A program made the position numbers and the translations under genes. From Mobula hypostoma (Eukaryota), in contig NC_086097.1 in the NCBI RefSeq assembly GCF_963921235.1, positions 153,452,001 through 153,516,000 on the forward strand: DNA of 64,000 bases. Direction: 5' to 3'. Positions 45,449 to 62,178 of the stretch are shown here, in pieces (position 1 is the first letter of the stretch; each line of letters starts with the position of its first letter). Under the pieces are notes generated by a model. It ran no database searches. It was not told the origin of the DNA and saw only the letters and a list, made by a program, of their open reading frames with translations.

Positions 45449-46615
45449 TACTAAGATAGCTATTCCTTGGCTTTGTTGTATGAGAAAAAGGAATTCAGCT
45501 CTGGTAACAGATCAGTCCTAAATCCTAGGCTGCTCATATTTGAGCAAGAGACTGAGTCTGCTACTGGAACACAAACTTCCTCCTGTGAGGAGTAGTCAAG
45601 GTATGTCTACACCTTGCCACTGACATAGGACAGCTGCAACATTAAAAAAGGCTGCCATGGTTTGTGTTGTGACCCACACAAAGTTGCCACGGTTCGGGTC
45701 ATATTCCTCGTGAAGTTGCCGTGGGTAGGTCCCACAAGAAGCATAGGAAAATTCAGTAAGTTTGTTATTAAAAAAGGAATTCTAAAATGCATGTGACTGT
45801 GTGCATATACGTACTTGCATGTGTGTGTGTGTGCGCGCGCATGGTAGCATGAAAGCCCCCTGTCCTGGACATCTGAAGGACTTTGTTTGCGTGCATGTTT
45901 GTGCATTATGACCAGAAGGCATCAAGTATGTTGAGAAGTACATTGTATGGGTGGAATGGATTAAGTGAGTGTCTGCAGACCTGTTGTTCAAGAAAGGAAA
46001 ATGTGAGAAGACTATTGGGTGGCTGTGATTATTCAATGTAGATATGAAATGCAAAAAAGCCATTAGATGAATCCAGTAAATATGCAGAGAAAGTGAACAC
46101 AAGTTAAAAAAGGAAAAGACACAAAAAAAGGCAAAGGATAATAGTTTCAACCACAGTGTTTGAAAAAAAAAATTGGTACCAGAGTCTGAGGGTGAACGAG
46201 ATGCTGGATGTCTGCCTTCCCCAGATGTCTCTCGAGTACTCAGTGAGGTCAGCATCAGCAGGTGCTCTGCCACAGGTGGTAGTTCCCAATGTCACTCAGG
46301 GAAATGGGAGGCGAAGGGGTAAGCGAAATGGTGATTTAAAAATACCTTGACCTGATCTAGTAGGAGCTATTATGGCATTTTTGTAGTTGGCACGTATAGC
46401 AAGTAACTTCCACAACTAACTTTAGCCACCAATCTTCAGATCTGTGACAAGGATGAATTGGACCCGAATGCTGGGATATCCACAACAAAGTTTGAGACAC
46501 AATATCACACTGGATCTGAACTGAAAACAAACTAAACAATATCACTAGTAGGCTTACAATTGACCACTGAACCGCAATTCAGGTGTCCCTTAAATACTCA
46601 GTTCTTGGTGTTCAA

Positions 46616-46746
46616 AACATGATTACCAGTTAGTGTGACTATTCTGAACTATGATGACAAATTCGTGTGACTATTCTGAACTATGATGACAAATTTATGT
46701 GACTATTCTGAACCATGATTACTAATTAGTGTGACTATTCTGAACC
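46616..46746. repeat. 32-bp tandem repeat, about 4 units, in the 3' LTR
   Basis: GTGTGACTATTCTGAACTATGATGACAAATTC units. Confidence 0.9.
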
Positions 46747-48343
46747 CTTAAAGGGGCCACTCCAGTGAGCCATACTTAGGGGAGTTTGAGGGTCCAAATC
46801 CCAGAAGTTGGCGTGGTTGGGGGCATCTCGTAACAGGACCCCCATCCCTATGGCTGGCCCCTGATAGCCTTGGCTGCTGTAAGAGGTGGTGATGGTAACA
46901 GTGGATGAGACCTGCATCCAAGTTGTCTCTTTCAGGCACCTAGCACCTTCTCTTTGGGTCCAAATTTTTCCCAGTCCACGAGGTATCGCTGAACACATCA
47001 AAGACAATGCGAGTCCAAAAGTCTCACCGTGAAGACCTGGTCTCTATCAATAAACCAGGGTGGCAACAGGGCCAGTGGTGGTGGGTTAAGGGGCTGGTGC
47101 TGGAAGGATTTAATTTAGAGATGTGGAAGGTGGGATTGATTCTCAGGGTCTTGGAAGCTGCAAGGTGTAAGCCACTGGGTTTACTTTCCTTAGGATTTTA
47201 AAGACCAATGAACTTGGGCACCAGCATTCTAGATTCCACTCAGAGGAATATCAGGAATAGACAGGTAGACCTATTGCCCAGGCTGTAAAATGGATTCCTG
47301 ATTTCTTCAGTTTGGCTTGGTCTCTGCTTTCCAGGTAGAGGCTAGCAAAATCCCCAATCCATTTTTGCTTGCAGCGTTGGATGAGATTTTCAGCCACAGG
47401 GACCCCAACCTTGGGATTTTGTTCTGGAAAGAAAGGTGGAGGATAACCAAGCTGGCACTTGAATGGTGATATCTGTGTGCCAAATGCTGTAAGGTGTTGT
47501 GAGTGATCTTTGCCCATATTAAATAGTCACACCACTCATTAGGTCTTTCAGAGGCCAGGCATCTTAGAGTATGTTCTAAATTTTGGCTGGTCCTCTGTCT
47601 GGCTATTGGACTGAGGATGAAACCCAGAGGAAAAGCTTGCTGTTGCCCCTGTCAGCTTACAGAATGCTCTCCATAAATGTGATGTGAATTGTGGACCATG
47701 ATCTGAGATAATGTGTACTGGCTTTTAAAGACCGATCAACAATTACCATGATAACTGACTTCACCTCAGATGGCGAAAGACCTGTGACAAAGTCCATGAA
47801 AATATGTGCCCAAGGTCTCTCTGGAACAGATAGGAGGTAGAAGAGCCCTTGAGATTGATATGGGAGTCCTTGTTCAAGGCACACAATGCTCATGCCTGCA
47901 TGAACTGCTGAACTTCTTTCATTCCTCCAAAGCTAACAGCTGCAAAAAGCTCCTGATTCCAGATGTTCTTTTCTGCCGGGAATAGCCACCTGGAGAAGAA
48001 AACACACAGATACACTTTACTGTCCTGAAGGTGATTGTTGAGACAAGACAGCACACACTCCGATGTCAGAGGCGTCCAACTCCACGATGAAGGAAAAATT
48101 TGGATTTGGTTCATCAAAACCTTTTAAGTTCACTGCTGCTCTCCCAAGGTGAGGGCATACTTCAATTCATCTTAGTCTGTTGTGGTAAAGCGTGGACGAG
48201 GCCTCCCCATTCCAACCACACTCCTCGGCCAAGGTCTGAAATTTGATAACATAATCAGCCATGGATCATACCCCCTGTCGAATCTTCATCAGGTGGACTG
48301 TGGTTTGGTTGGCTGCAGCGGGGTGATGAATCATCTTTCTTAT

Positions 48344-51300
48344 AGAAACATAGAAAACCTGTAGCACAATACAGGCCCTTCAGCCCACAAAGTTGTGCTG
48401 AACACGTCCCTACCTTAGAAATTACTAGGCTTACCTATAGCCCTCTATTTTTCTAAGCTCCATGTACCAATCCAAAAGTCTCTTAAAAGACCCTATCGTA
48501 TCCGCCTCCGCCACCATTGCTGGCAGCCCATTCCACTCACTTACCACTCTGTGTAAAAAAACTTACCCCTGACATCTCCTCTGTACCTACTCCCCAGCAC
48601 CTTAAACCTGTGTCCTCTTGTGGCAGCCATTTCAGCCCTGGGAAAAAGCCTCCGACTATCCACATAATCAATGCCTCTCATCATCTTATACACTTCTATC
48701 AGGTCACCTCTCATCCTCTGTCGCTCCAAAGAGAAAGGGCCGAGTTCACTCAACCTGTTTTCATAAGGCATGCTCCCCAATCCAGACAACATCCTTGTAA
48801 ATCTCCTCTCCACCCTTTCTAAGGCTTCCACATCCTTCCTGTAGTGAGGCGACCAGAACTCAGCACAGTACTCAAAGTGGGGTCTGACCAGGGTCCTATA
48901 TAGCTGCAACATTACCGCTCGGCTCCTAAATTCAATTCCAAGATTAATGAAGGCCAATACACCATACGCCTTCTTAACCACAGAGTCAACCTGCGCAGCT
49001 GCTTTGAGCGTCCTGTGGACTCGGACCTCAAGATCCCTCTTATCCTTCACACTGCCAAGAGTCTTACCATTAATAGTATATTCTGCCATCAAATTTGACC
49101 TACCAAAATGAACTTCTTCACACTTATCTGGGTTGAACTCCATCTGCCACTTCTCAGCCCAGTTTTGCATCCTATCAATATCCCTTTGTAACCTCTGACA
49201 ACCCTCCTCAATATCCACAATACCTCCAACCTTTGTGTCATCAGCAAACTTCCAAACCCATCCCTCCACTTCCTCATCCAGGTCGTTAATAAAAATCACG
49301 AAGACCAAGGGTTTCAGAACAGATCCCTAAGGCACACAACTGGTCACCGACCTCCATGCAGAATATGACCTGTCTACCACCACTCTTTGCCTTCTGTGGG
49401 CAAGCCAGTTCTGGATCCACAAAGCAATGTCCCCTTGGATCCCATGCCTCCTTACTTTCTCAATAAGCCTTGCATGGGTTACCTTGTCAAATGCCTTGCT
49501 GAAATCCATATACACTACATCTACAGCTCTTCCTTCATCAATGTGTTTAGTCACATCCTCAAAAAAATTCAATCAGGCTCGTAAGGCATGACCTGCCCTT
49601 GACAAAGCCATGCTGACTCTTCCTAATCATATTATATCTCTCCGAATGTTCGTAAATCCTGCTTCTCGGGATCTTCTCCATCAACTTACCAACCACTGAA
49701 GTAAAACTCACTGATCTATAATTTCCTGGGCTACCTCTACTCCCTTTCTTGAATAAAGGAACAACATCTGCAACCCTCCAATCCTCCGGAACCTCTCCCA
49801 TCCCCTTTGATGATTCAAAGATCATCACCAAAGGCTCAGCAATCCCCTCCCTCACCTCCCACAGTAGCCTGGGGTACATCTCATCCGGTCCTGGCGACTT
49901 AGCCAACTTGATGCTTTACAAAAGCTCCAGCACATCCTCTTTCTTAATTCTACATGCTCAAGCTTACCAATACAATCACCAAGAACCTTTTCCATAGTGA
50001 ATACTGAAGTATTCATTAAGTACCTCTGCTGTTTCCTCCGATTCCATACACACTTTCCCACTGTCACACTTGATATGTCCTATCCTTTCACGTCTGATCC
50101 TCTTGCTCCTCACATACTTGTAGAATGCCTTAGGGTTTTCCTTAATCCTGCCCACCAAGGCCTTCTCATGGCCCCTTCTGGCTCTCCTAATTTCCTTTTT
50201 AAACTCCTTCCTGTTAGCCTTGTAATCTTCTAGATCTCTAACATTACCTAGGATCTTTGAACCTTTTGTAAGCTTTTCTTCTTGACTAGATTTATTACAG
50301 CCTTTGTACACCACGATTCCTGTACCCTACCATAACTTCCCTGTCTCATTGGAACGTACTTATGCAGAAATCCACACAAATACCTCCTGAACATTTGCCA
50401 CATTTCTTCCGTACTTTTTCCTGAGAACATCTGTTCCCAATTTAAGCTTCCAATTTCCTGCCTGATAGCCTCATAATTCCCCTTACTCCAATTAAACGCT
50501 TTTCTAACTTGTCTGTTCCTATCTCTCTCCAATGCTATTGTAAAGGAAATAGAATTATGGTCACTATCTCCAAAATGCTCTCCCACTGAGAGATCTGACA
50601 CCTGACCAGGTTCATTTCCCAATACCAAATCAAGTACTGTCTCTCCTCTTGTAGGCTTATCTGCATATTGTGTCAAGAAACCTTCCTGAACACAACTAAC
50701 AAACTCCACCCCATCTAAACCCCTCGCTCTAGGGAGATGTCAATCAGTATTTGGGAAATTAAAATCTCTCATCACAACAACTCTGTTATTATTACACCTT
50801 TCCAAGAACTGTTTTCCTATCTGCTCCTCGATAGCCCTGTTACTATTGAGCAGCCTATAAAAAACACCCAGTAGAGTTATTGACCCCTTCCTATTCCTAT
50901 CCTCCACCCACAGAGACTCCGTAGACAATCCCTCTATGACGTCCACCTTTTCTGCAGCCGTGACACCATTTCTGATTAACAGTGCCCTGCCTACACCTCT
51001 TTTGCCTCCCTCCCTGTCCTTTCTGAAACATCTAAAACCCGGCACTTGAAGTAACCATTCCTGTCCCTGAGCCATCCAAGTCTCTGTAATGGCCACCACA
51101 TGATAACTCCAATACTCCTTGCATTAAAATAGATACATCTCAAACTGTCTGTCTGAGCGTGTCCCTTCTCTATCACCTGCCTGTCCTCCCTCACACAATG
51201 TCTCTAAGCTTCCTCTATTTGTGAGCCAACCGCCTCTTCCCCAATCTCTTCAGTTCGGTTCCCACACCCCAACAATTCTAGTTTAAACTCTCCCCAGTAG

Positions 51301-52465
51301 CCTTAGCAAACCTTCCTGCCAGGAAATTGGTCCCCCTGGGATTCAAGTGCAACCCGTCCTTTTTGTACAGGTCAGTCCTGCCCCAAAAGAGGTCCCAATG
51401 ATCCAGGAATCTGAATCGCTGCCCCCTGCTCCGATCCCTCAGCCACGCACTTGTCCTGCACCTCATTCTATTCCTATACTCACTGTCGCGTGGCACAGGC
51501 AGTATCCCTGAGATTACTACCTTTGCGGTCCTGTTTCTCAACTTCCTTCCTAACTCCCTGTACTCTTTTTTTCAGGACCTCTTCCCTTTTCCTATATATG
51601 TCGTTGGTACCAATATGTACCACAACCTCTGGCTGTTCTCCCTCCCACTGCAGGATATCTTGGACGTGATCTGAAACATCCCGGACCCTGACACCTGGGA
51701 GGCAAATGACCATCTGAGTTTCTTTCCTGCATCCACAGAATTGTCTGTCTGACCCCCTAACTATAGAGTCCCCTATCACTACTGCCTTCCTCTTTCTTTC
51801 CCTACCCTTCTGAGCCACAGGGCCTGACTCTGTGCCAGAGGCACGGCCACTGTTGCTTCCCCCAGGTAGGTCACCCCCCCCTGCAACAGTACTCAAACAG
51901 TAGTATTTATTGTCAAGAGGTACAGCCACAGGATACTCTCTAGTACCTGACTCTTCCCCTTCCCCCTCCTGACTGTGACCCATTTGTCTGTCTCCTGTGG
52001 CCCCGGTGTGACCACCTGCCTATAACTCCTTTCTATCACCTCCTCACTCTCTCTGACTAGACAAAGGTCATCGAGCTGCATCTCCATTTCCCTAATGCTG
52101 TCCCTTAGGAGCTGCAGCTCGACACACTGGGTGCAGATATGGCCATCCGGCAGGCTGGGAGACTCCAGGACCTCCTGCATCTGACACCAAGCACAGAAAA
52201 CTGGCCTCACACACATAATGCTTCCTTTCTGCAATTAACACATGTAAACCTACCTCGCCTCGTTACCACGTAAGCCTGTTGAACCAAGCCCTATCACTCT
52301 GCCACCTCTCACTCCACCGCCCGCTGGATATGGTGGTCTTCTTTCTAAACTTTTCCCGCTCTACCGGCTGACGGCACGCACCTACCTCCCTTTTAACCCA
52401 AGTAGTAAAATGTCTTCGCTCCGGAAATCCTTAAGCCATCCCACTCGCAGCCTTCTTGCTCTGAA
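48344..52465 (-). mobile_element. Full-length CR1 LINE inserted in the chromovirus gag
   Basis: ORF1 has CxxC...CxxC and an SGNH esterase (VVIGDSIVRG, HIGTND, DGLHLN); ORF2 has EN (YFNARSI, ITETW, DFN, SDH) and RT (QHGF, DFSKAFDKV, FADD); AGAAACATAGAAA tail; 4-bp TTAT duplication at 48340-48343 and 52466-52469; frameshifted. Confidence 0.93.
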
Positions 52466-52952
52466 TTATGGTGACCATGAATTACCCCGAATCCAAGCAA
52501 ATCTCTGACCCATGTTCCCAATGCATGGTAGCCTAGGCCAGGGCTCCTCCAGTAAGGAGAGAGATACTGAAGGCCATTTTTCTGCACTCCAAAAGGAATT
52601 GGGAGTTCAAACACCAGTAAGCATTGGGTGAGGAAGCTGTGGCAAGAACCTAGGTCACCGTTGAATGTTTCTGGGACTGGAAGATGTGCTGGCTTCACAG
52701 AATGACAACCTGGCTCTCCCAAGCAATTTTAGCTTCCTCCTTGCGAAAGTTGATGAACAGCTACCTGGAGGTTATGAACCTCCAGGCCACGTTGGCTCAA
52801 TCCTACTGTGACAAGAGTCCTTAACATGGATGAAATGGACCCAATCCTGAATATCCAAAGCAAGGTTTCAGATACGATATCGCACTGGATCTGAAGACAA
52901 AAGAAACACTAGACAATATCCCTAGTAGGCTTACAAATGAGCACTGAATCTT

Positions 52953-55900
52953 CTTCTTCATCTTCTTCTATTTCTGGCTGTTTAGACGCATCTAGGCGTA
53001 TTATAGACCTCCGCAGGATGTATAATTAATTACAGAACTTCAAGGAACTCAAATTCTCGAATACAACCTAGTCTCACGTATAAACTGAATAATAAACTCT
53101 TCAATCAGATGCTGATTCTCTTGATGGCCAAACAAAGGTTGAATAAAAAACCAAAATAAATTTAAGCCAGATAACCTATTGAACAACATGCTTCTTTCAA
53201 TTTTGTATCGATTACAGCTCAGCAAAACATGCTGGACTGTCTCTGGACTACCACAGTCACATAAGCCAGTAGGATGTTTTCCTATTACCTTTAAATAATA
53301 ATTTAGCCCACAATGCCCCAACCTAAGTCTTGTAAATTTCACCATATCTCTACGAACTTAAGGTAACAGTCTGAGACCTTTTTAACTTGTGGGTGACTAG
53401 AAAAATAATGCCTGCCCCTTAATTCATTTTTCCAATCCTCCTGCCACTTCTTCTCTATACCTTTTTTAATGCTACTTCTTAATTCTGTTCTGCCTAGGGG
53501 AACTCTAATTTTTACTTGCCTGCTCTGTAGGGAAGATTTTGCAATGCCATCCACAATTTCATTTCCTTCCACCCCAGCATGTCCAGGTATCCATGAAAAT
53601 CTAACTGCACAACCCATCTTCCCTACTCTAAACAGCACTAAGAGAATATCAATAACTATGTCAGGATGAGCTTTTAATTTACTCCCTTTTATGGACTCTA
53701 AGGCAGCAGCAGAATCCGAACAGATGATAACCCTACGTGGTCGAGAGTCTTCTATCCACCATAAGGCCCAGAGGATTGCTAATAATTCTGTTGCAAAGAC
53801 AAACACCATCTGAAACCCAGTGACCAATCTTAATTCCAAGCTGAGACATATACATGCCAAATCCTGCCCTACTGCTCTCTGGGTCCACTGAGCCATCAGT
53901 AAAAATATTCAGATAAGATCCCCATTTATTATTTAAATATTCATTTGTGATCAATGCTGATGAAATTGCACTGCTTCCTTGAAGCTGAAAATGGAGGAAT
54001 AGGTCTACTTCTGGTTCTGGGAAGAGCCAAAGAGGGATGGGTGGCAGGCAAATTTGGTCAAATATGTCTTCCTCAGTCAGTTTCAATTTCACAGCCCAGT
54101 TATTAACCAAATCTAAAAATGGGTATCTTTTAATTTTACTTTGGCGCTCTGACTTTCCCTGCAAAAGACACTTTAATGGACAGCTGTGATTGAATCCATT
54201 TAGTTTAACCCAATACTGCAGGCCCAACTGAATTCGTCTTAAATGTAGAGGCATTTCTCCCATCTCCACACATAATGCCGGGACTGATGTCCTTCTAAAA
54301 GCTCCACAACAGAGTCTAAGTGCTTTGGACTGCACAGTGTCTAGTTTTCCAAACACTGCCGTAGCAGCGGAACCATAAGCAATATAACCATAATCTATAA
54401 CTGATCTAATCATAGCTAGATATATTAAGTACATAGTTTCCCACCCTGCTCCCCAGTTGCATCCAGCAATGCTTCTCATAACATTTAAAACTTTCTCACA
54501 CTTTCCAATTGTTTTACCTATATGAACCCTCCAAGTGTTCCATCAAACTAGACACCTAAAAACTTGAATACCTTGACTCTTTTTAGTGGAGAATCATATA
54601 GACACAATTCACAATCAGGAATCTTTCTTCTAAAGCCAAAAATCATGTATTTGGACTTAGAAGCAGAAATCCTGAAACCCCATTTATTAGCCCAGTTTTC
54701 AACTGATCTTAAAGCCTTTTGTACCTGCCTTAATATATACTTGATGTTTCTTCCTCTTTTCCAGATTGCACCATCGTCTCCAACCAATGATTTGCCAAAT
54801 CCTGTCCCTACCTGATCAAGGATATCATTTATCATGACATTAAAAAGAACTGGACTAATGACACTTCCTTGAGGGGAACCATTACCTATATTAACTGACT
54901 TGGAGCTTGTTCCGCCTATTCTTACTTGAATTGTCCTTTCCTTAAGGAAATCTTTGATCCAAGTAAACCTTCTACCTCTAATTCCCGCATCATAGAGTTT
55001 AATTTATAAGCCATCCTTCCATAGTGAGTCATATGCTCTTTCAATATCTAGAAATACACTTACCATTATTTTTCTATTTTGAAATGCTTTTTTAATATCA
55101 TGATCTAAAAAGGCAACAGATTCCATTGTTGATCTTCCAGTTCTAAAACCGTGTTGATAGGCAGAAAAATATCCCTTATTCTCCAAAAAATAAACAAGTC
55201 TGTTGGTGACCATTCGTTCCATAGTTTTACAAAGCCCTGACGTTAAAGCTATAGGCCAATACGAATAGGACTAGACGTGTCCTTACCTGGCTTTAAAACT
55301 GGAACTACCACCACATGCTTTCATTCCTGAAGGGAGAAAAACAAATTTATGGAGCTATTATCATCCAAACTCCTGTCCAATTTCCAACTTTCCTTTAACA
55401 TAATTTCCTTTCTCAAATCACCTAACTCTCCAGAACTGTGTACGCTTGGACCACCTCTACAAACGTATCAGCCTTTTCCTTATCGTTTACAGCTTCAATA
55501 TCTCCTTCCAGCAAAGCTGGGATAGATGGTTTCCTATATATCCCTGACATTCCGTGAATGATCATCCATAGCTGCTTTATAGGTGTCTCAGGGCTCAGGG
55601 TTCCACAAAATCTTCTCCAACTATCCCTCTTTGCATTTTTAATTACTCTCCTTGCTACTGCTCTTTCCTTTTTATGCTCCATAACATTATCTAACACTGG
55701 GTATTTTCTTAATTTCCAGTAAGCCTTATTTTGTTTTCTTACTGCTATATCACAATTTTTACTCCACCACGGAACTAATGCTCGAGCCTTAGGAACATGC
55801 CGTAGCAGAATAGTCAACTGACCAACTTTATGAATTATGGAACAGAAGGATTCATTCCAATCGTCTATGGAGCCCTCGCTATTAATCTCTTCTATTATAT

Positions 55901-57925
55901 CCACAGCTTTCTCCTGGTACTCATCCCAATGGGCCAAAGAAAAATTGTACCTAACAGATCTCTCCTCAACTTCTACTATCAAATTTCTACCAAATCTACA
56001 TAATATAGGATTGTGATCACTTCCTAGTGTGTATCTGTCCATAACATCCCATTCCCTAACCCTAGCTAAGTTTGAGGAAGTGATAGGTAAGTCTAAGTGA
56101 CTACAAATATTCTTTACAATATTAAGTCTTGTAGGCCTTCCATCATTTAGTTTATCTAGAAACTCCTCTACCACCGCTCCATTACTATCTTTACTTTCAC
56201 TGCCCCATATAGGATTATGGGCATTGAAATCTCCAACCCAGATTACTGGGGATCTTACCTTATTCATAATTTCATCCAAATCTGATAACATCATATTATC
56301 TGGATTATAAAAGTTAATCAAAGTTATTTGACCACGAGAGCTCCAATCCTCCACAGCCACAATTTCAAGGTTAGATTTAAAATCAAGTCTTCTAAACTGG
56401 AGTCCTGTTTTTATGAAAGTTGCACACTAGATTTACCCGTTCTGTCAGCTCTCAAACCATCATATCCAGGGATCACAAAATCTAAATGAGGCTTTAACCA
56501 TGTCTCCTGCATACAGATCAAATCAGGCTTGTCTTTAAAAGTTCCAAGAAATCTTTTTAATTCTTGACCATTTGCAGATAAACTTCTTGCATTCCATTGT
56601 AATATTAAAAACATCCAAATACTAATTATTGGCCTCTTCATCCACATAAAGCCCCTCTGTACTCTCTGATCCCAACAACTGGAAAGTATTCAGTGATTGT
56701 TTGTCTGTCATATACTCATGTAATTTTTCCGGCAAAATCTGTTTTATATCAAGGAATCTCTCTGCAGCTCCAACAACTACTTTTATCATATCCAACCTCT
56801 TGGCTGTAGTTTTAGCCCCAACCAGTACATCAACAACAAATGCCAAAAAAAGACTCTTTAGTCATCAACAACATGCCTAAAGGAACCATAGTTGGAGAAC
56901 TCGGAATGAACTGACTCCCCATCATTCCAAACTTTTCTTTACCTATCCTTTGCTCTCTATCAACTTTCCTTACTGCCTCAGCATATGATATTTTTTGTTG
57001 GATACTAACATCCTGAATTTACTTTGCCTTACTAAAATACTCACATCCTCTGAACGCCGCTATATGGTCCCCTCCACGGTTACTGCATTTAGGCACCGCT
57101 GCCTTACATGCTTTAATATCATGATCCTCTCCACATTTCATACATCTTCTTTTACCTCAACATGAACCGGCAACGTGTCCAAATCTCTGGCAATTACAAC
57201 AGCGTAAGGGAGGCCTAATGTATTCTCTAACTTGATAAGACATGCACCCAAGATAGACCCAAGGAAGAACATCACCTACAAAAACCGGAAGAATAGGGGA
57301 ATCCCAATTACCACCTTCTCTCGATTTTAATCATTTGGTTTCAATCACTTGACCACCTTTAATATTGTCCAAAATTTCCTTTTCAGTCATGCCAGACCAA
57401 ATAACATGAACTACCCCCTTAACTACTTTCTTTTCTTTCAGAGTAATACACTCCACTTATACAACCAATTTTCCCACCATTTTAGCACTGTTATATTGGT
57501 CAATATCTTTGCAACAAATTTTCAGCAATCCATTAGACAAAATCTTGGCCTAGAATCCTTTACCTATTTGGTTCTCTACTGCTGCTGCCACTTCCAAAGG
57601 ATTAAGGGCTCTAAATCCTCTTCCTCCTTCCTTCTGACCTTTAGTTTTATACAGAACTATTAATTCCTCCAATTCACCCATTTTCCTCAATTTGTTGTCC
57701 CCCATTACTTCTGGTCTTTCACTTGATGCACCCTTTTTTTGGCTACCCTTACTTTTGGAGAATTCCACAGTCTCCCACCCTCCCCCTTCAATCTCAACCC
57801 CCCCCTCCCTTTTGCAGCCATAGGCTACAAACTAACCCTTTCCAAGCTACTAGGCTCCTCCACACCAAAGTCCCCACCCACTCAATCAACAGCCCCAACT
57901 GCCAGACTCCTTCCCCCATCGCCAC
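52953..57925 (-). mobile_element. Nimb/I-group LINE copy 1, full length (ORF1 with CCHC knuckles; ORF2 EN-RT-RNase H), disrupted
   Basis: ORF1 57768-56622 (CCNCQRFGH, CMKCGEDH); EN ILQWNARSL, QETWL, GDFNAH, GSDH; RT QHGFR, FLDIERAYD, PQGSVISP; RNase H FTDGS, WIPGH, GNE; (GAA)n tail; flanked by GAGCACTGAA. Confidence 0.9.
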
Positions 57926-57939
57926 GAGCACTGAAACTT

Positions 57940-58895
57940 CTTCTTCTTCTTCTTCTTCTTCTTCTATTTCGGGCTGTTTAGCCACATCTAGGCATATTAC
58001 AGCCCTCCACAGGATGTATAATTAATTACAGAACTTCAAGGAACTCAAATTCTCGAACACAAGCTAGTCTCACGTATAAACTGAATAATAGACTCTTCAA
58101 TCAGATGTTGATTCTCTTGATGGCCAAACAAAGATTGAATAGAAAACCAAAATAAATTTAAGCCAGATAGCCTCTTGAACAGCATGCTTCTTTCAATTTT
58201 GTATCGATTACAACTCAGCAAAACATGCTGGACTGTCTCTGGACTACCACAGTCACATAATCCAGTAGGATGTTTTCCTATTATCTTTAAATAATAGCTT
58301 AGCCCACAATGCCCCAACTTAAGTCTTGTAAATTTCACTATATCTCTACGACTTAAAAGGTAACAGTCTGAGACATTTTTAACTAGTGGGTGACTAGAAA
58401 AATAATGCCTGCCCCTTAATTCATTTTTCCAATCCTCCTGCCACTTCTTCTCTATACCTTTTTTAATCCTACCTCTCAATTCTGCTCTGCCTAGGGGAAC
58501 TCTAATTTCTACTTGCCTGCTCTGTAAGGAAGACTTTGCAATGCCATCCACAATTTCATTTCCCTCCACCCCAGCATGCCCAGGTATCCATGAAAATCTA
58601 ACTGCACAACCCATCTTCCCTACTCTAAACAATACTAAGAGAATCTCAATAACTATGTCAGGACAAGCTTTTGATTTATTCCTTTTTATAGACTCTAAGG
58701 CAGCAGCAGAATCCAAACAGATGATAACGCTATGTGGTTGAGAGTCTTCTATCCACCGTAAGGCCCAGAGGATTGCTAATAATTCTATTGCAAAGACGGA
58801 AACACCATCTGAAACCCGGTGACCAATCTTAACTCCAAGTTGAGACACATACATCCCAAATCCTGCCCTACTGCTCTCTGGGTCCACTGAGCCAA
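57940..58895 (-). mobile_element. Nimb/I-group LINE copy 2, 5'-truncated, same family as copy 1
   Basis: Open 280-aa frame 58045-58887 (RNase H plus C-terminal CDCG...HVLLSC), highly similar to 53049-53895; (GAA)n tail. Confidence 0.92.
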
Positions 58896-58908
58896 AGCAC
58901 TGAATCTT

Positions 58909-60867
58909 CTTCTTCTTATTATTCTTCTTTTTTGTTTTATGGCAGTTGGCAACCAGTTTTCAGTGCATTACCGCCACCTGCTAGACTTGTGGTGTTCCAA
59001 CCAAAAATGTCCTGGAGTTCTCTACTTTAGACAATCTAGTTCAGCCTGCAGTTCTCTATTAGCATCACTGTGTAGTTGCAATTCCTCGTGAATGCTTAAT
59101 GCGCTCATTAGATAATGCTGCAAACTGCTATTCTTCCCTAATTATGTCACTTGTTTTTGCGTAGTTGCATTACCTCAATTACATTGATTTCATCTACATC
59201 ACTTGTAAGACTAAAATTGTCTTGTTAAAGAATAGTAATTATCGCACATTATACTTTTAAAATAGCTGTTTTTCCAAGTCTAACTGCTTTTTCATGTTTT
59301 CCTTTCCTTGGATCGTAGCCTGCAGTTGTTTACCGAGACCTCGGAGTTCTCCTTCATTTGCGTCCATGTTTTCATTTTATAATCTGAATGTAGATAATTC
59401 ACTTTACAACAACTTCCTTTTCCTTTCATGTCCTTGTAATAATTTCCTCTATTTTCCAACCTCTTTCCAACTCACTGTTGTTCTTGTCGGGTACTTCTTT
59501 GTTGTTGGAGTTCTGCACATTTACCTTGGGCTTCAACCATAAAATCTGGGTATTTTCCTTAAATTCTGAAATATTTCTTAAATTCTTGACCATTTGCGAT
59601 AAATATACTGCCATTAAGATTCCATCTCCCCTGCCTGTGAACTGTTGGATCCTCCATTCAGAGTATCTTTGACTTCTTCCCACCTAATTCCTTTAAGACC
59701 AAGATATTTTTCTGTAGACTTGACGATAATTTTAATTTTATCAGTTCTTTTGCTTGTTTGCGCTGAACAATTAATTGCATCCACCATAAAAAGCACAAAC
59801 TCCTTTCTACTCATTAATAGTGTATCCTTATTTTTCCTATTACAGCTCTCACAATTCACCAGTTTATTATTCCCTGTATTTGTTCGCTTGACAGCCTTTT
59901 TTTCATCAAATTCTTTCACTGCCTCTGGATAACTGATCCCTTGAGTTACTTTTACATATTGTATCTCAGCTGCCTTCTTGCTATAAATGCACCCTCGATA
60001 AGCTACACTTTCCTCACCACAATTGCAGCATTTCAGCCCAGCGCCCGCTTAACGTTTCCCATATTCATGTTCTCCAGCACATCTTCCACATCGTTGTTTT
60101 CCTCTGCAGACCACTGCAATGTGACCGAATTTCTGACATTTATAGCATCTTAAAGGTAGTGGTATATATATATTCTAACCGCATAACACATATATCATAA
60201 GTAAACGTTAGTCAGCAATCTCTCTTCATCAAAGTTAATCATTACCGATAAACTATCACACTTTTTCCTATTTCTTGTAACTTCCAAATGTTTGGCCTCA
60301 ATAATTTTTGCTCTTTTTATGTTCTGTTTAATCTCATCCATAGTAACTTTTGTTGGTATCCCTGAAATAATTCCTCTAGTCCACTTTCTATTGTTGGGTA
60401 TTGAGCACTGTGCTTCTTTGCCGTCTATTTTACATAATCTTATCACTTTTCCTTGCTGAGCACTATCCTGACAAATCACTAATAGTGATCCATTTCGTAA
60501 AATCTTTGCTCCTTTAATCTTGCCTATAATTTTGTTGAGCATCTTCGTCAAACGAATTGGGTTCCAATCACCAAAAGATGCCCCGTCTTCACCTAGTTTT
60601 ATAATTGCTTTAATCTCATCTTCTTTCCATTGTTTTGCTGTCCTGCTTTGATCATCCGCTGACTCCTCAGTGTTTGATATCCCGTAGCTCTGCTTTCTTT
60701 TCTTCCTCTTTCCATTCCATTCCTCTTTCCTGCTGACCCCCATCTCTAGTTCACTTCCTTCAACAGCTTGGCTCTTTCCTTGATGTTCTCTCTCTCTGCT
60801 ATTTTCCAGTCACAACTTAACTCTCTCTTTCCACAACCGACCGCCAAGGGTCAGACATAGCCCAAAA
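58909..60867 (-). mobile_element. Nimb-like LINE copy 3, different family, ORF1 retained and ORF2 almost entirely deleted
   Basis: ORF1 60743-59614 (LRNGSLLVIC, GIISGIP, CYKCQKFGH, CGRCAGEH, CCNCG); only an EN start (IANGQEFKKY...WLKPK) follows; 3' end GGTGGCGGTAATGCAC plus (GAA)n. Confidence 0.8.
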
Positions 60868-62178
60868 CACTGAATCTTGGTTCGGATGTTCCTTAAATAC
60901 TCAATTCTTGTTACTCAAAACATGATTACTGATTAGAGGGACCATTCTGAACACTTCAAGGGACCACGCCTGGGATCCATACTCTGGGGAGCTTGAGCGT
61001 CTAAATCCTAGAAATCCACTAAATCCACTGTTGGGGGCGTCCGGTAATATTAAATTTAGATTATATTTAAAATACAGCTCTGGACAATAGGTTCCTAATA
61101 GCAGTGAACCACAGTTAATTGGAAGACCAAACAATGCTGATTTAAATTCATTTGGGTGTCTGTAGCGTGTGCAAATAGTGAGGTGTGAAGTTTGTAGTTC
61201 AAAGTAGGCATTGTGGTTACATGTAAATATGGAGTTTCCCTTTGATATTTAGCATATAAAATGTCATTTAGTGTAGGGTCAAACAGGCCTTTTCCTCTGA
61301 AAGAGTCTCAATATGATGCCTGTTGTGCCTAATTTTGTTGATTAAAGAGACTACTTAATATCTACGAGCTACTTCTCTCTGGTGACTTTGTTCATGTGAC
61401 AACAGGAGCTCTAAGAAAATGTTTCCCTCGCAAGGTAGATTGGTATAAAATAACAGTGTCATACAAAATGTACTATGTAGAACCTGTCTGTAAATGTTTT
61501 CAAAAATATTCTGGATTAACCTTAGATGTGGGGACACCCATCTTAATAAGTGTTATTGTAAATGAGTTACAACCTAGGTTAAAGAAAACATATATGGTTA
61601 CTTGAATGAGATGAGAAGAACTAAGTAAAATTGTGAATGTCTTACAATATTGCCAAAAGCAATTACATCAAATGATTAAAACTGCCCAGGGGAATGAGGA
61701 CTTGTTTGAAACTTCCCAGTTGCTCCACTATAACCTCTGGGTAATAGTATACTTTGCTTTAAAAATACAGGTCGACCTTCGCTAAACCGGCACCATTGGG
61801 ACCTGAGGAGTGCTCAGGACTAATCAAAATAGGACATACATGGTAAATGGTAGGGCATTGAAGAATGCAGTAGAACAGATGGATCTAGGAATAATGGTGC
61901 ATAGTTCCCTGAAGGTGGAATCTCATGTGGATGGGGTGGTGAAGAAAGCTTTTGGTATGCTGGCCTTTATAAATCAGAGCATTGAGTATAGGAGTTAGGA
62001 TGTAATGTTGAAATTGTATAAGGCATTGGTAAGGCCAAATCTGGAGTATTGTGTACAGTTCTGGTCACTGAATTATAGGAAAGATGTCAATAAAATTGAG
62101 AGAATACAGAGGAGATTTACTAAAACGTTGCCTGGGTTTCATCTCCTAAATTACAGAGATAGATTGAACATGTTAGGT

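Follow-up and report, generated by a model that had tools for sequence, protein, structure and literature searches.

Three LINE insertions of two families at a single nick in a gypsy long terminal repeat of Mobula hypostoma: a possible case of insertion directed to an RNA polymerase II start

Long interspersed nuclear elements (LINEs) that are known to be directed to particular sites aim at multicopy RNA genes, repeats and genes that RNA polymerase III (Pol III) transcribes. A preference for RNA polymerase II (Pol II) promoters is known from the fission yeast element Tf1 and from the P element of Drosophila, which differ from LINEs in using integrase or transposase chemistry, in a regional preference and in the lack of target-primed reverse transcription. 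The present analysis concerns three Nimb-like LINEs, elements A, B and C, stacked within a long terminal repeat (LTR) of an old gypsy element in 64,000 nucleotides (nt) of the Mobula hypostoma genome (assembly GCF_963921235.1, NC_086097.1, positions 153,452,001 to 153,516,000, forward strand), hereafter called the window. Among known systems these elements appear to behave most like TRE5-A of Dictyostelium discoideum, which, in the available passages of its description (PMC5391098), inserts orientation-specifically at tRNA genes, forms tandems, has a partner with only the first open reading frame (ORF1) and encodes an ORF1 protein that binds TBP in vitro. Shared traits are an APE-type LINE placed, here probably, by its position relative to a transcription start, fixed orientation, tandems and a likely ORF1-only partner. 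TRE5-A, by the same passages, lies about 46-47 bp upstream of Pol III (tRNA) genes with its 5' end facing the gene, whereas the LINEs considered here lie at or just before putative Pol II-type starts and run in the same direction as the gene.

The Nimb clade was reportedly introduced by Kapitonov and Jurka in 2009. Its host range includes fish, according to passages of PMC4758252 and PMC9004415, and a passage of PMC11960703 reports that promoters (-1000/+200 of the start) hold 18% of the Nimb copies of Atlantic salmon, the only exception among large superfamilies, while other transposable element groups thin out towards start sites. Nimb elements share with A, B and C the CCHC knuckles of ORF1, an ORF2 with APE, reverse transcriptase (RT) and RNase H, a microsatellite tail, fish hosts and promoter-proximal copies. 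The published figure is regional, and orientation, nick position, stacking and mechanism are not treated in the available part of PMC11960703. In the main text of openly accessible papers, nothing was found on whether Nimb elements are sequence-specific, how they are oriented at starts or whether they stack, and the accessible parts of PMC9341512, PMC13319265 and PMC11481361 contain nothing on Nimb targets. R1, Tx1 and the early-branched LINEs with a restriction-like endonuclease, as far as described in part in PMC4640811, likewise re-use one nick position, occasionally form tandems and include transposons among their targets. They have a fixed, conserved multicopy target, in contrast to the present motif, which is not conserved in its LTR family, and to the flanks of related copies, which are unrelated to one another.

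The three LINEs, from two families, all lie on the minus strand, head-to-tail within the 5' LTR of the gypsy element (Table 1). The only exact occurrences of the motif CACTGAAWCTT in the window are those at 52942, 57929, 58898 and 60868, four copies where about 0.09 were expected from base composition. With one mismatch allowed there are seven in the window against a shuffle mean of 4.4, no excess, so the signal lies in the exact copies, one at each of the four junctions. On the minus strand they form nested duplications of 14, 14, 13 and 11 nt, each starting with AAG; the copy at 57929 carries one substitution. The original prediction of four motif copies parting three elements of the same orientation was confirmed, all four being exact and unique in the window. 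Its reading of three independent target-primed insertions at one site was likewise upheld by the nesting of the duplications, the presence of two families, the 5.8% distance between A and B, and the confirmed outer junctions. One nick has been re-used three times by two LINE families, and this re-use is real. The lengths of the duplications were tried as an indicator of insertion order and dropped as evidence, since 11, 13 and 14 nt are compatible with every order.

Table 1. Coordinates of the stacked LINEs, the target copies and the host gypsy element in the window.
Feature	Positions	Strand	Evidence
Partner (3') LTR, empty site	46443..46835	-	Alignment
Decayed gypsy internal region: RNase H-like, integrase and SH3 pieces	46836..48345	-	PF17919, PF00665, PF24626
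3' part (predicted R/U5) of interrupted gypsy 5' LTR	52807..52938	-	Identity to 46443-46571 at 109/127 aligned bases
Target copy 1 (14 nt), runs on into LTR	52939..52952	-	Motif search; junction in X1, X2 and X5 contigs
Element A, near-full-length family-1 LINE, broken, (GAA)n tail	52953..57925	-	Pfam PF14529, PF03372, PF00078; likeness to P0001; frames
Target copy 2 (14 nt with one substitution), between B tail and A 5' end	57926..57939	-	Motif search
Element B, family 1, 5'-truncated at RNase H, (GAA)n tail	57940..58895	-	93.7% identity to A; PF00075
Target copy 3 (13 nt), between C tail and truncated B 5' end	58896..58908	-	Motif search
Element C, family 2, ORF1-only, 3' motif GGTGGCGGTAATGCAC, predicted hairpin, tail	58909..60867	-	Frames; public-run contigs
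Target copy 4 (11 nt), holds predicted initiator TTCAGT with its A at 60871	60868..60878	-	Motif search; junction in X1, X2 and X5 contigs
5' part (predicted U3) of interrupted gypsy 5' LTR	60879..61049	-	135/169 aligned bases identical to partner LTR
TATA-like box TATTTAAG, first T 28 nt upstream of initiator A	60892..60899	-	Motif search; partner LTR equivalent 46589-46596

Contigs from four public runs, representing three samples at most (runs X1 and X2 are one sample), were compared with positions 52500-61300. The junctions 52622-52990 and 60788-61094 were recovered with no differences in contigs of X1 and X2, and the same outer junctions were present in X5, a run under another organism label, with 16/310 and 7/327 differences. 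Because both outer junctions occur in X5, the insertions of the family-1 element at the left end and of C at the right end are older than the split from the X5 organism. Among the 32 contig pieces listed, support covers these two outer junctions; that the inner ones do not appear there speaks neither for nor against them.

The description of one element as 5'-truncated (B) and of another as ORF1-only (C) was borne out by the reading frames, Pfam and the A/B alignment. Element A had been called full length; ORF1, with three CCHC-type knuckles, and ORF2, with APE, RT and RNase H, are both there, but it is only near full length, the largest of its deletions removing about 150 nt (residues 447-496) among other frameshifts, stops and deletions. 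Its ORF2 is about 90% identical at the amino acid level to P0001, an intact relative of 1257 residues. Element B has an open frame from RNase H to the C-terminus, differs from A by 55 substitutions and 3 indels, and ends in the only significant 3' hairpin (z = -3.6). In element C, an ORF1 that is 40-54% identical in amino acids to that of A, in three blocks, is followed by a remnant of the endonuclease start, then by about 600 nt without similarity to ORF2 and a 3' end unlike that of A, with a predicted hairpin of z = -1.0 only. The ORF2-less part (58910-59675) showed continuous high depth and many diverged contigs in all four public runs; since it is multi-copy there, C is likely to belong to a non-autonomous, ORF1-only family that was moved in trans. 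Two X5 joints, 56602-59606 and 56605-59603, link the end of a C-type ORF1 to the start of an A-type ORF2, as a third family or a chimera (one side being 21 nt long) might do.

CCHC zinc knuckles in ORF1 are a feature of I-group LINEs, and three Cys/His clusters were read in the frames of both A and C; the ORF1 pieces scanned gave no Pfam match. The I-group combination of APE endonuclease and RT in ORF2 was detected by Pfam in A and P0001, and RNase H, listed as an I-group feature in a passage of PMC4640811, was found after RT in P0001 (residues 970-1097) and in B (PF00075). By their predicted domains A, B and C are I-group LINEs. The name Nimb-like is based on host range and on a presumed 3' motif of the clade rather than on a tree with reference elements, and no branch of an RNase H tree was strongly supported. 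We take a 3' end of the form GGTGGCGGTAATGC, with a hairpin and an (AAG)n tail, to be a putative hallmark of Nimb, and the GGTGGCGGTAATGC motif is present in C and in the fish-like loci with related ORF2 described below. Divergence from X9 contigs was 5.7% for C, 3.7% for A and 2.2% for B (p = 0.06 between A and B, p = 0.08 between A and C), with no indels in B and three in A. Element B is probably the youngest insert, a ranking that polarisation of the A/B differences does not confirm, as private residues (14:13) and CpG decays (2:6) do not separate A from B.

The flanks of the stack are collinear with the LTR at 46443-46835, 244/296 aligned bases (82%) being identical. Since decayed minus-strand gypsy pieces lie between the two LTRs, it is the 5' LTR that is interrupted, and the direction of the LINEs is that in which gypsy would be transcribed. 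It had been proposed that removing the inserts and keeping one motif restores the LTR; this collinearity stood, but the partner LTR reads CACTGAACCGC at the site and lacks CTT. TATTTAA is used as a TATA box in retroviral LTRs. Here TATTTAAG precedes the putative initiator TTCAGT at a spacing of 28 nt in both LTRs, and of the four TATA..TCAKT pairs in the window two are these LTRs, the motif having been chosen after the site was seen. The duplications then span -7 to +4, +6 and +7 relative to the predicted start. The TATA/initiator reading follows consensus sequences and LTR layout, together with one passage of a plant preprint on TATTTAA as TATA box, and by it the duplicated site overlaps the predicted Pol II start of the LTR. 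This overlap with a predicted core promoter, like the position of relatives at gene starts, goes beyond the original prediction.

Related copies were sought by a metagenome scan for the 3' motif of C followed by a tail. This gave 38 loci (L001-L038), from which two non-elements (L020 and L025) and a near-duplicate of L023 (L031) were dropped, leaving 35. They were picked by the exact motif, represent other families than A, B and C, and come in 34 of 35 cases from two assemblies; by their gene content they appear to be of fish origin. They are tied to the stacked elements by their ORF2 likeness, several loci holding pieces 30-50% identical to ORF2 relatives, and by a family-1-type 3' end in L027. 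A search of prokaryote genomes gave six pattern matches with one true 3' end (L059); the 17 pattern matches in viral contigs included no true 3' end or ORF2 relative, and a protein scan found none either.

Sequence behind the tails of these loci resembles the beginning of genes on the sense strand. Within the first 300 nt, a sense Kozak ATG was present in 21 of 34 loci (11.4 expected, reached by 0/200 dinucleotide shuffles), sense splice donors in 15 (8.4 expected, 3/200 shuffles) and an ATG followed by a donor in 14 (6.1 expected, 2/200 shuffles). No enrichment was seen in these shuffle-controlled counts on the antisense strand, in the 300-600 nt bin or in the upstream bin. Raw donor-site counts, which showed a strand bias upstream as well (7:1), were replaced by them. 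The observed/expected (o/e) ratio of CpG was 0.70-0.92 over the first 500 nt after the tail but 0.31 further out, at 1-1.5 kb (p = 0.017 when 16 loci were compared in pairs). Three of 110 ORFs on both strands had Pfam matches, all sense (L011, L012 and L021), and three of six hand-picked sense ORFs had N-terminal matches in the PDB: APRT in L022, FUBP1 in L038 and NAD synthetase in L001. These six confirmed sense gene starts lie 17-171 nt past the tail. Stacks of the same orientation were found in 3/35 loci (L007, L013 and L027), with the second element at or close behind the first tail and, in L027, two types of 3' end. Candidate duplications of 11-15 nt, all beginning within 3 nt of the tail end, were found in 5/36 loci (L059 included; controls 1-4). 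YY1, ETS and CRE promoter motifs were too sparse in the flanks for a test. The traits that mark TRE5-A-type insertion recur here in part: orientation is fixed (sense-only enrichment and six sense gene starts) in the direction opposite to that of TRE5-A, and tandems at one target occur in the stack, L007, L013 and L027. As for a narrow distance to the start, the tails lie 17-171 nt from the ATG, and the LTR start is predicted only.

We lean, if only slightly, towards the view that the stack arose from LINE insertion directed by position to a Pol II start rather than by a fixed sequence, possibly helped at this locus by tail pairing, and the stack is then most likely one sharp case of a start-site-seeking habit of Nimb-like LINEs. 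Under this view the protein-RNA complex would be drawn to an open Pol II start, or would cut more easily there. The template strand would be nicked first, some 7 nt ahead of the predicted +1, roughly where the initiation bubble has its upstream edge; the second nick, at +4 to +7, would be made in the opposite strand. Each insertion would copy the initiator and leave a start-like junction that could be hit again; at the fish-like loci gene starts follow directly behind the tail, so a junction of tail and initiator can evidently stay a start region. The middle target copy is also the 5' end of A itself. Pairing between the (AAG)n RNA tail and the AAG at the nick may have favoured this LTR copy over its empty paralogs; because AAG is peculiar to this copy among those listed, tail pairing may well be a co-determinant. 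Element C would be mobilised in trans. A wider proposal, offered tentatively and with somewhat less than even confidence, is that the Nimb-like LINEs of bony and cartilaginous fish form a clade homing to Pol II start sites: they would nick the template strand in an opening promoter, insert in sense orientation, duplicate the initiator and pile up at promoters of housekeeping genes and transposons, as a vertebrate analogue of TRE5-A that acts at Pol II genes and would have remodelled the core promoters of many fish genes.

Several observations weigh against insertion directed to a start. The LTR start is predicted and its activity at the time of insertion presumed, the two LTRs are 18% apart and far older than the LINEs, and the CpG o/e ratio around the stack site is only 0.33-0.57. 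The partner LTR and the paralogs with the same initiator are empty, the initiator is not kept in two of four paralog sites among the matches listed, and B, probably the youngest element, used a target copy without a TATA box upstream. Among the fish-like loci, the hand-picked ORFs of L002, L017 and L007 (3/6) had no PDB match, and the set, which may favour CpG islands, does not distinguish targeting from retention.

The strongest competitor, though an unlikely one as sole cause, is a landing pad made by tail pairing, in which a chance first hit at AAG is followed by (AAG)n RNA tails that pair with the (CTT)n left behind an earlier tail. All four target copies start with AAG at the nick, whereas the partner LTR and the empty paralogs among the matches listed lack it; A and B each lie directly behind a tail, as do the second elements of L013 and L027. 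The suggestion of tail pairing in the original prediction is therefore retained as a possible helper, but an exact AAG is absent from the upstream copy of all five candidate duplications at the fish-like loci. Pairing would also leave the overlap with the initiator and the sense gene starts unexplained, and the uniquely copied sequence would be expected to vary beyond 8, 10 and 11 nt.

Considerably less probable is a loose bias towards open chromatin, with the same-strand position at gene starts owed to later retention or co-option and the stack being a local hot spot. The fish-like set consists mostly of old copies and its sample may be biased to CpG islands, as this explanation would have it. 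Against it, L018 and L032, whose long ORF2 tails are little broken, also precede sense ATGs, three hits at one nick position need more than regional openness, and other transposable element groups thin towards start sites (a passage of PMC11960703).

An endonuclease of both families specific for CACTGAATCTT, in the manner of R1 or Tx1, would account for an identical nick made three times, and, of the endonucleases with solved structures, that of TRAS1 is nearest in sequence (E 9e-5), a match that reflects I-group kinship. This explanation is very improbable. With one mismatch allowed, the target motif follows the tail in 1/35 related copies, which have no common flank, and among the matches listed all four empty LTR paralogs with letters at the site lack CTT, two of them keeping CACTGAA. 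The loose ends that follow C-family tails vary (five contigs, agreement 0.59), and one contig of 603 nt runs 410 nt beyond the C tail into sequence without a match in the window. In X5, two family-1 tails are followed by different spacers, one 11 nt and one 14 nt long; the 14-nt spacer leads into an internal family-1 position, as in this stack, which is a hint only, the side lengths not being displayed. The earlier idea that the endonuclease reads the LTR motif is accordingly not supported. Most copies of a sequence-specific LINE would share one flank, and here 1/35 and the mixed flanks in the runs were found; its target would be conserved in a multicopy sequence, and here the partner LTR and 4/4 listed paralogs are without CTT. 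The stack is not a new sequence-specific LINE family, a statement that for flanks in the animal itself draws on few listed rows. An artefact of assembly or a local duplication is hardly credible: although the inner junctions are not among the contig pieces listed and the stack is without a spanning long read, independent contigs reproduce the outer junctions exactly, a second organism has these junctions too, A and B are set apart by the substitutions and indels given above, and every junction carries a nested duplication.

On the element strand, CCTCTG comes first after the tail in both X5 spacers (joints 54917-52956 and 58698-52956), which agree in 9/11 bases. The two may stem from a single further stack with a CpG-rich flank, each being one of its duplications.

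If insertion is indeed directed to Pol II starts, it would explain why salmon Nimb copies are an outlier in promoters, it would mean that many fish housekeeping promoters start right behind a retrotransposon tail, and it would provide a testable model coupling target-primed insertion to transcription initiation, with the stack as a natural three-fold repeat of insertion resolved to the single base. Should tail pairing or retention act alone, the stack is a well-documented hot spot of modest import.

Several features of the related loci deserve mention on their own. A 3' motif, (C/A)AG(C/T)AGGTGGCGG, is conserved between the window (58960-58978, minus strand) and L001-L038; we take it to resemble the CTCF core site, in which case tails at promoters could, if bound, be regulatory sites. 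At positions 690-1207 of the oriented L036, two Nimb-like 3' ends diverge about 410 nt apart, as a bidirectional promoter might give. The 14-nt duplication at the tail junction of L024 includes ATGGCCGCC and CCTTTCT, presumably a YY1 site and a TCT-type initiator, respectively. In L018 (1594-1728), an ORF without a Pfam match, presumably the start of a BED-finger transposase, follows 30-42 nt behind a copy whose ORF2 tail is long, possibly a second landing at the start of another transposon. The tails of L005, L019, L021 and L034 are AAG runs interrupted by short spacers, for which tail-only insertions or microsatellite slippage are possible sources.

The host gypsy element is heavily decayed. 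Its Pfam matches (PF17919, PF00665 and PF24626) have E values of about 1e-4 to 1e-5, all under the curated cut-offs, and a decayed gag start lies beyond 52807 on the minus strand, where gag-like frames were recognised by eye with no Pfam match. A target duplication was sought around the element and none was found. Its gag region is split at 48345-52400 by a minus-strand LINE with RT similarity, presumably CR1/L2-like, and the 3' LTR carries a tandem expansion of a 32-nt unit at 46619-46745 that is not present in the 5' LTR.

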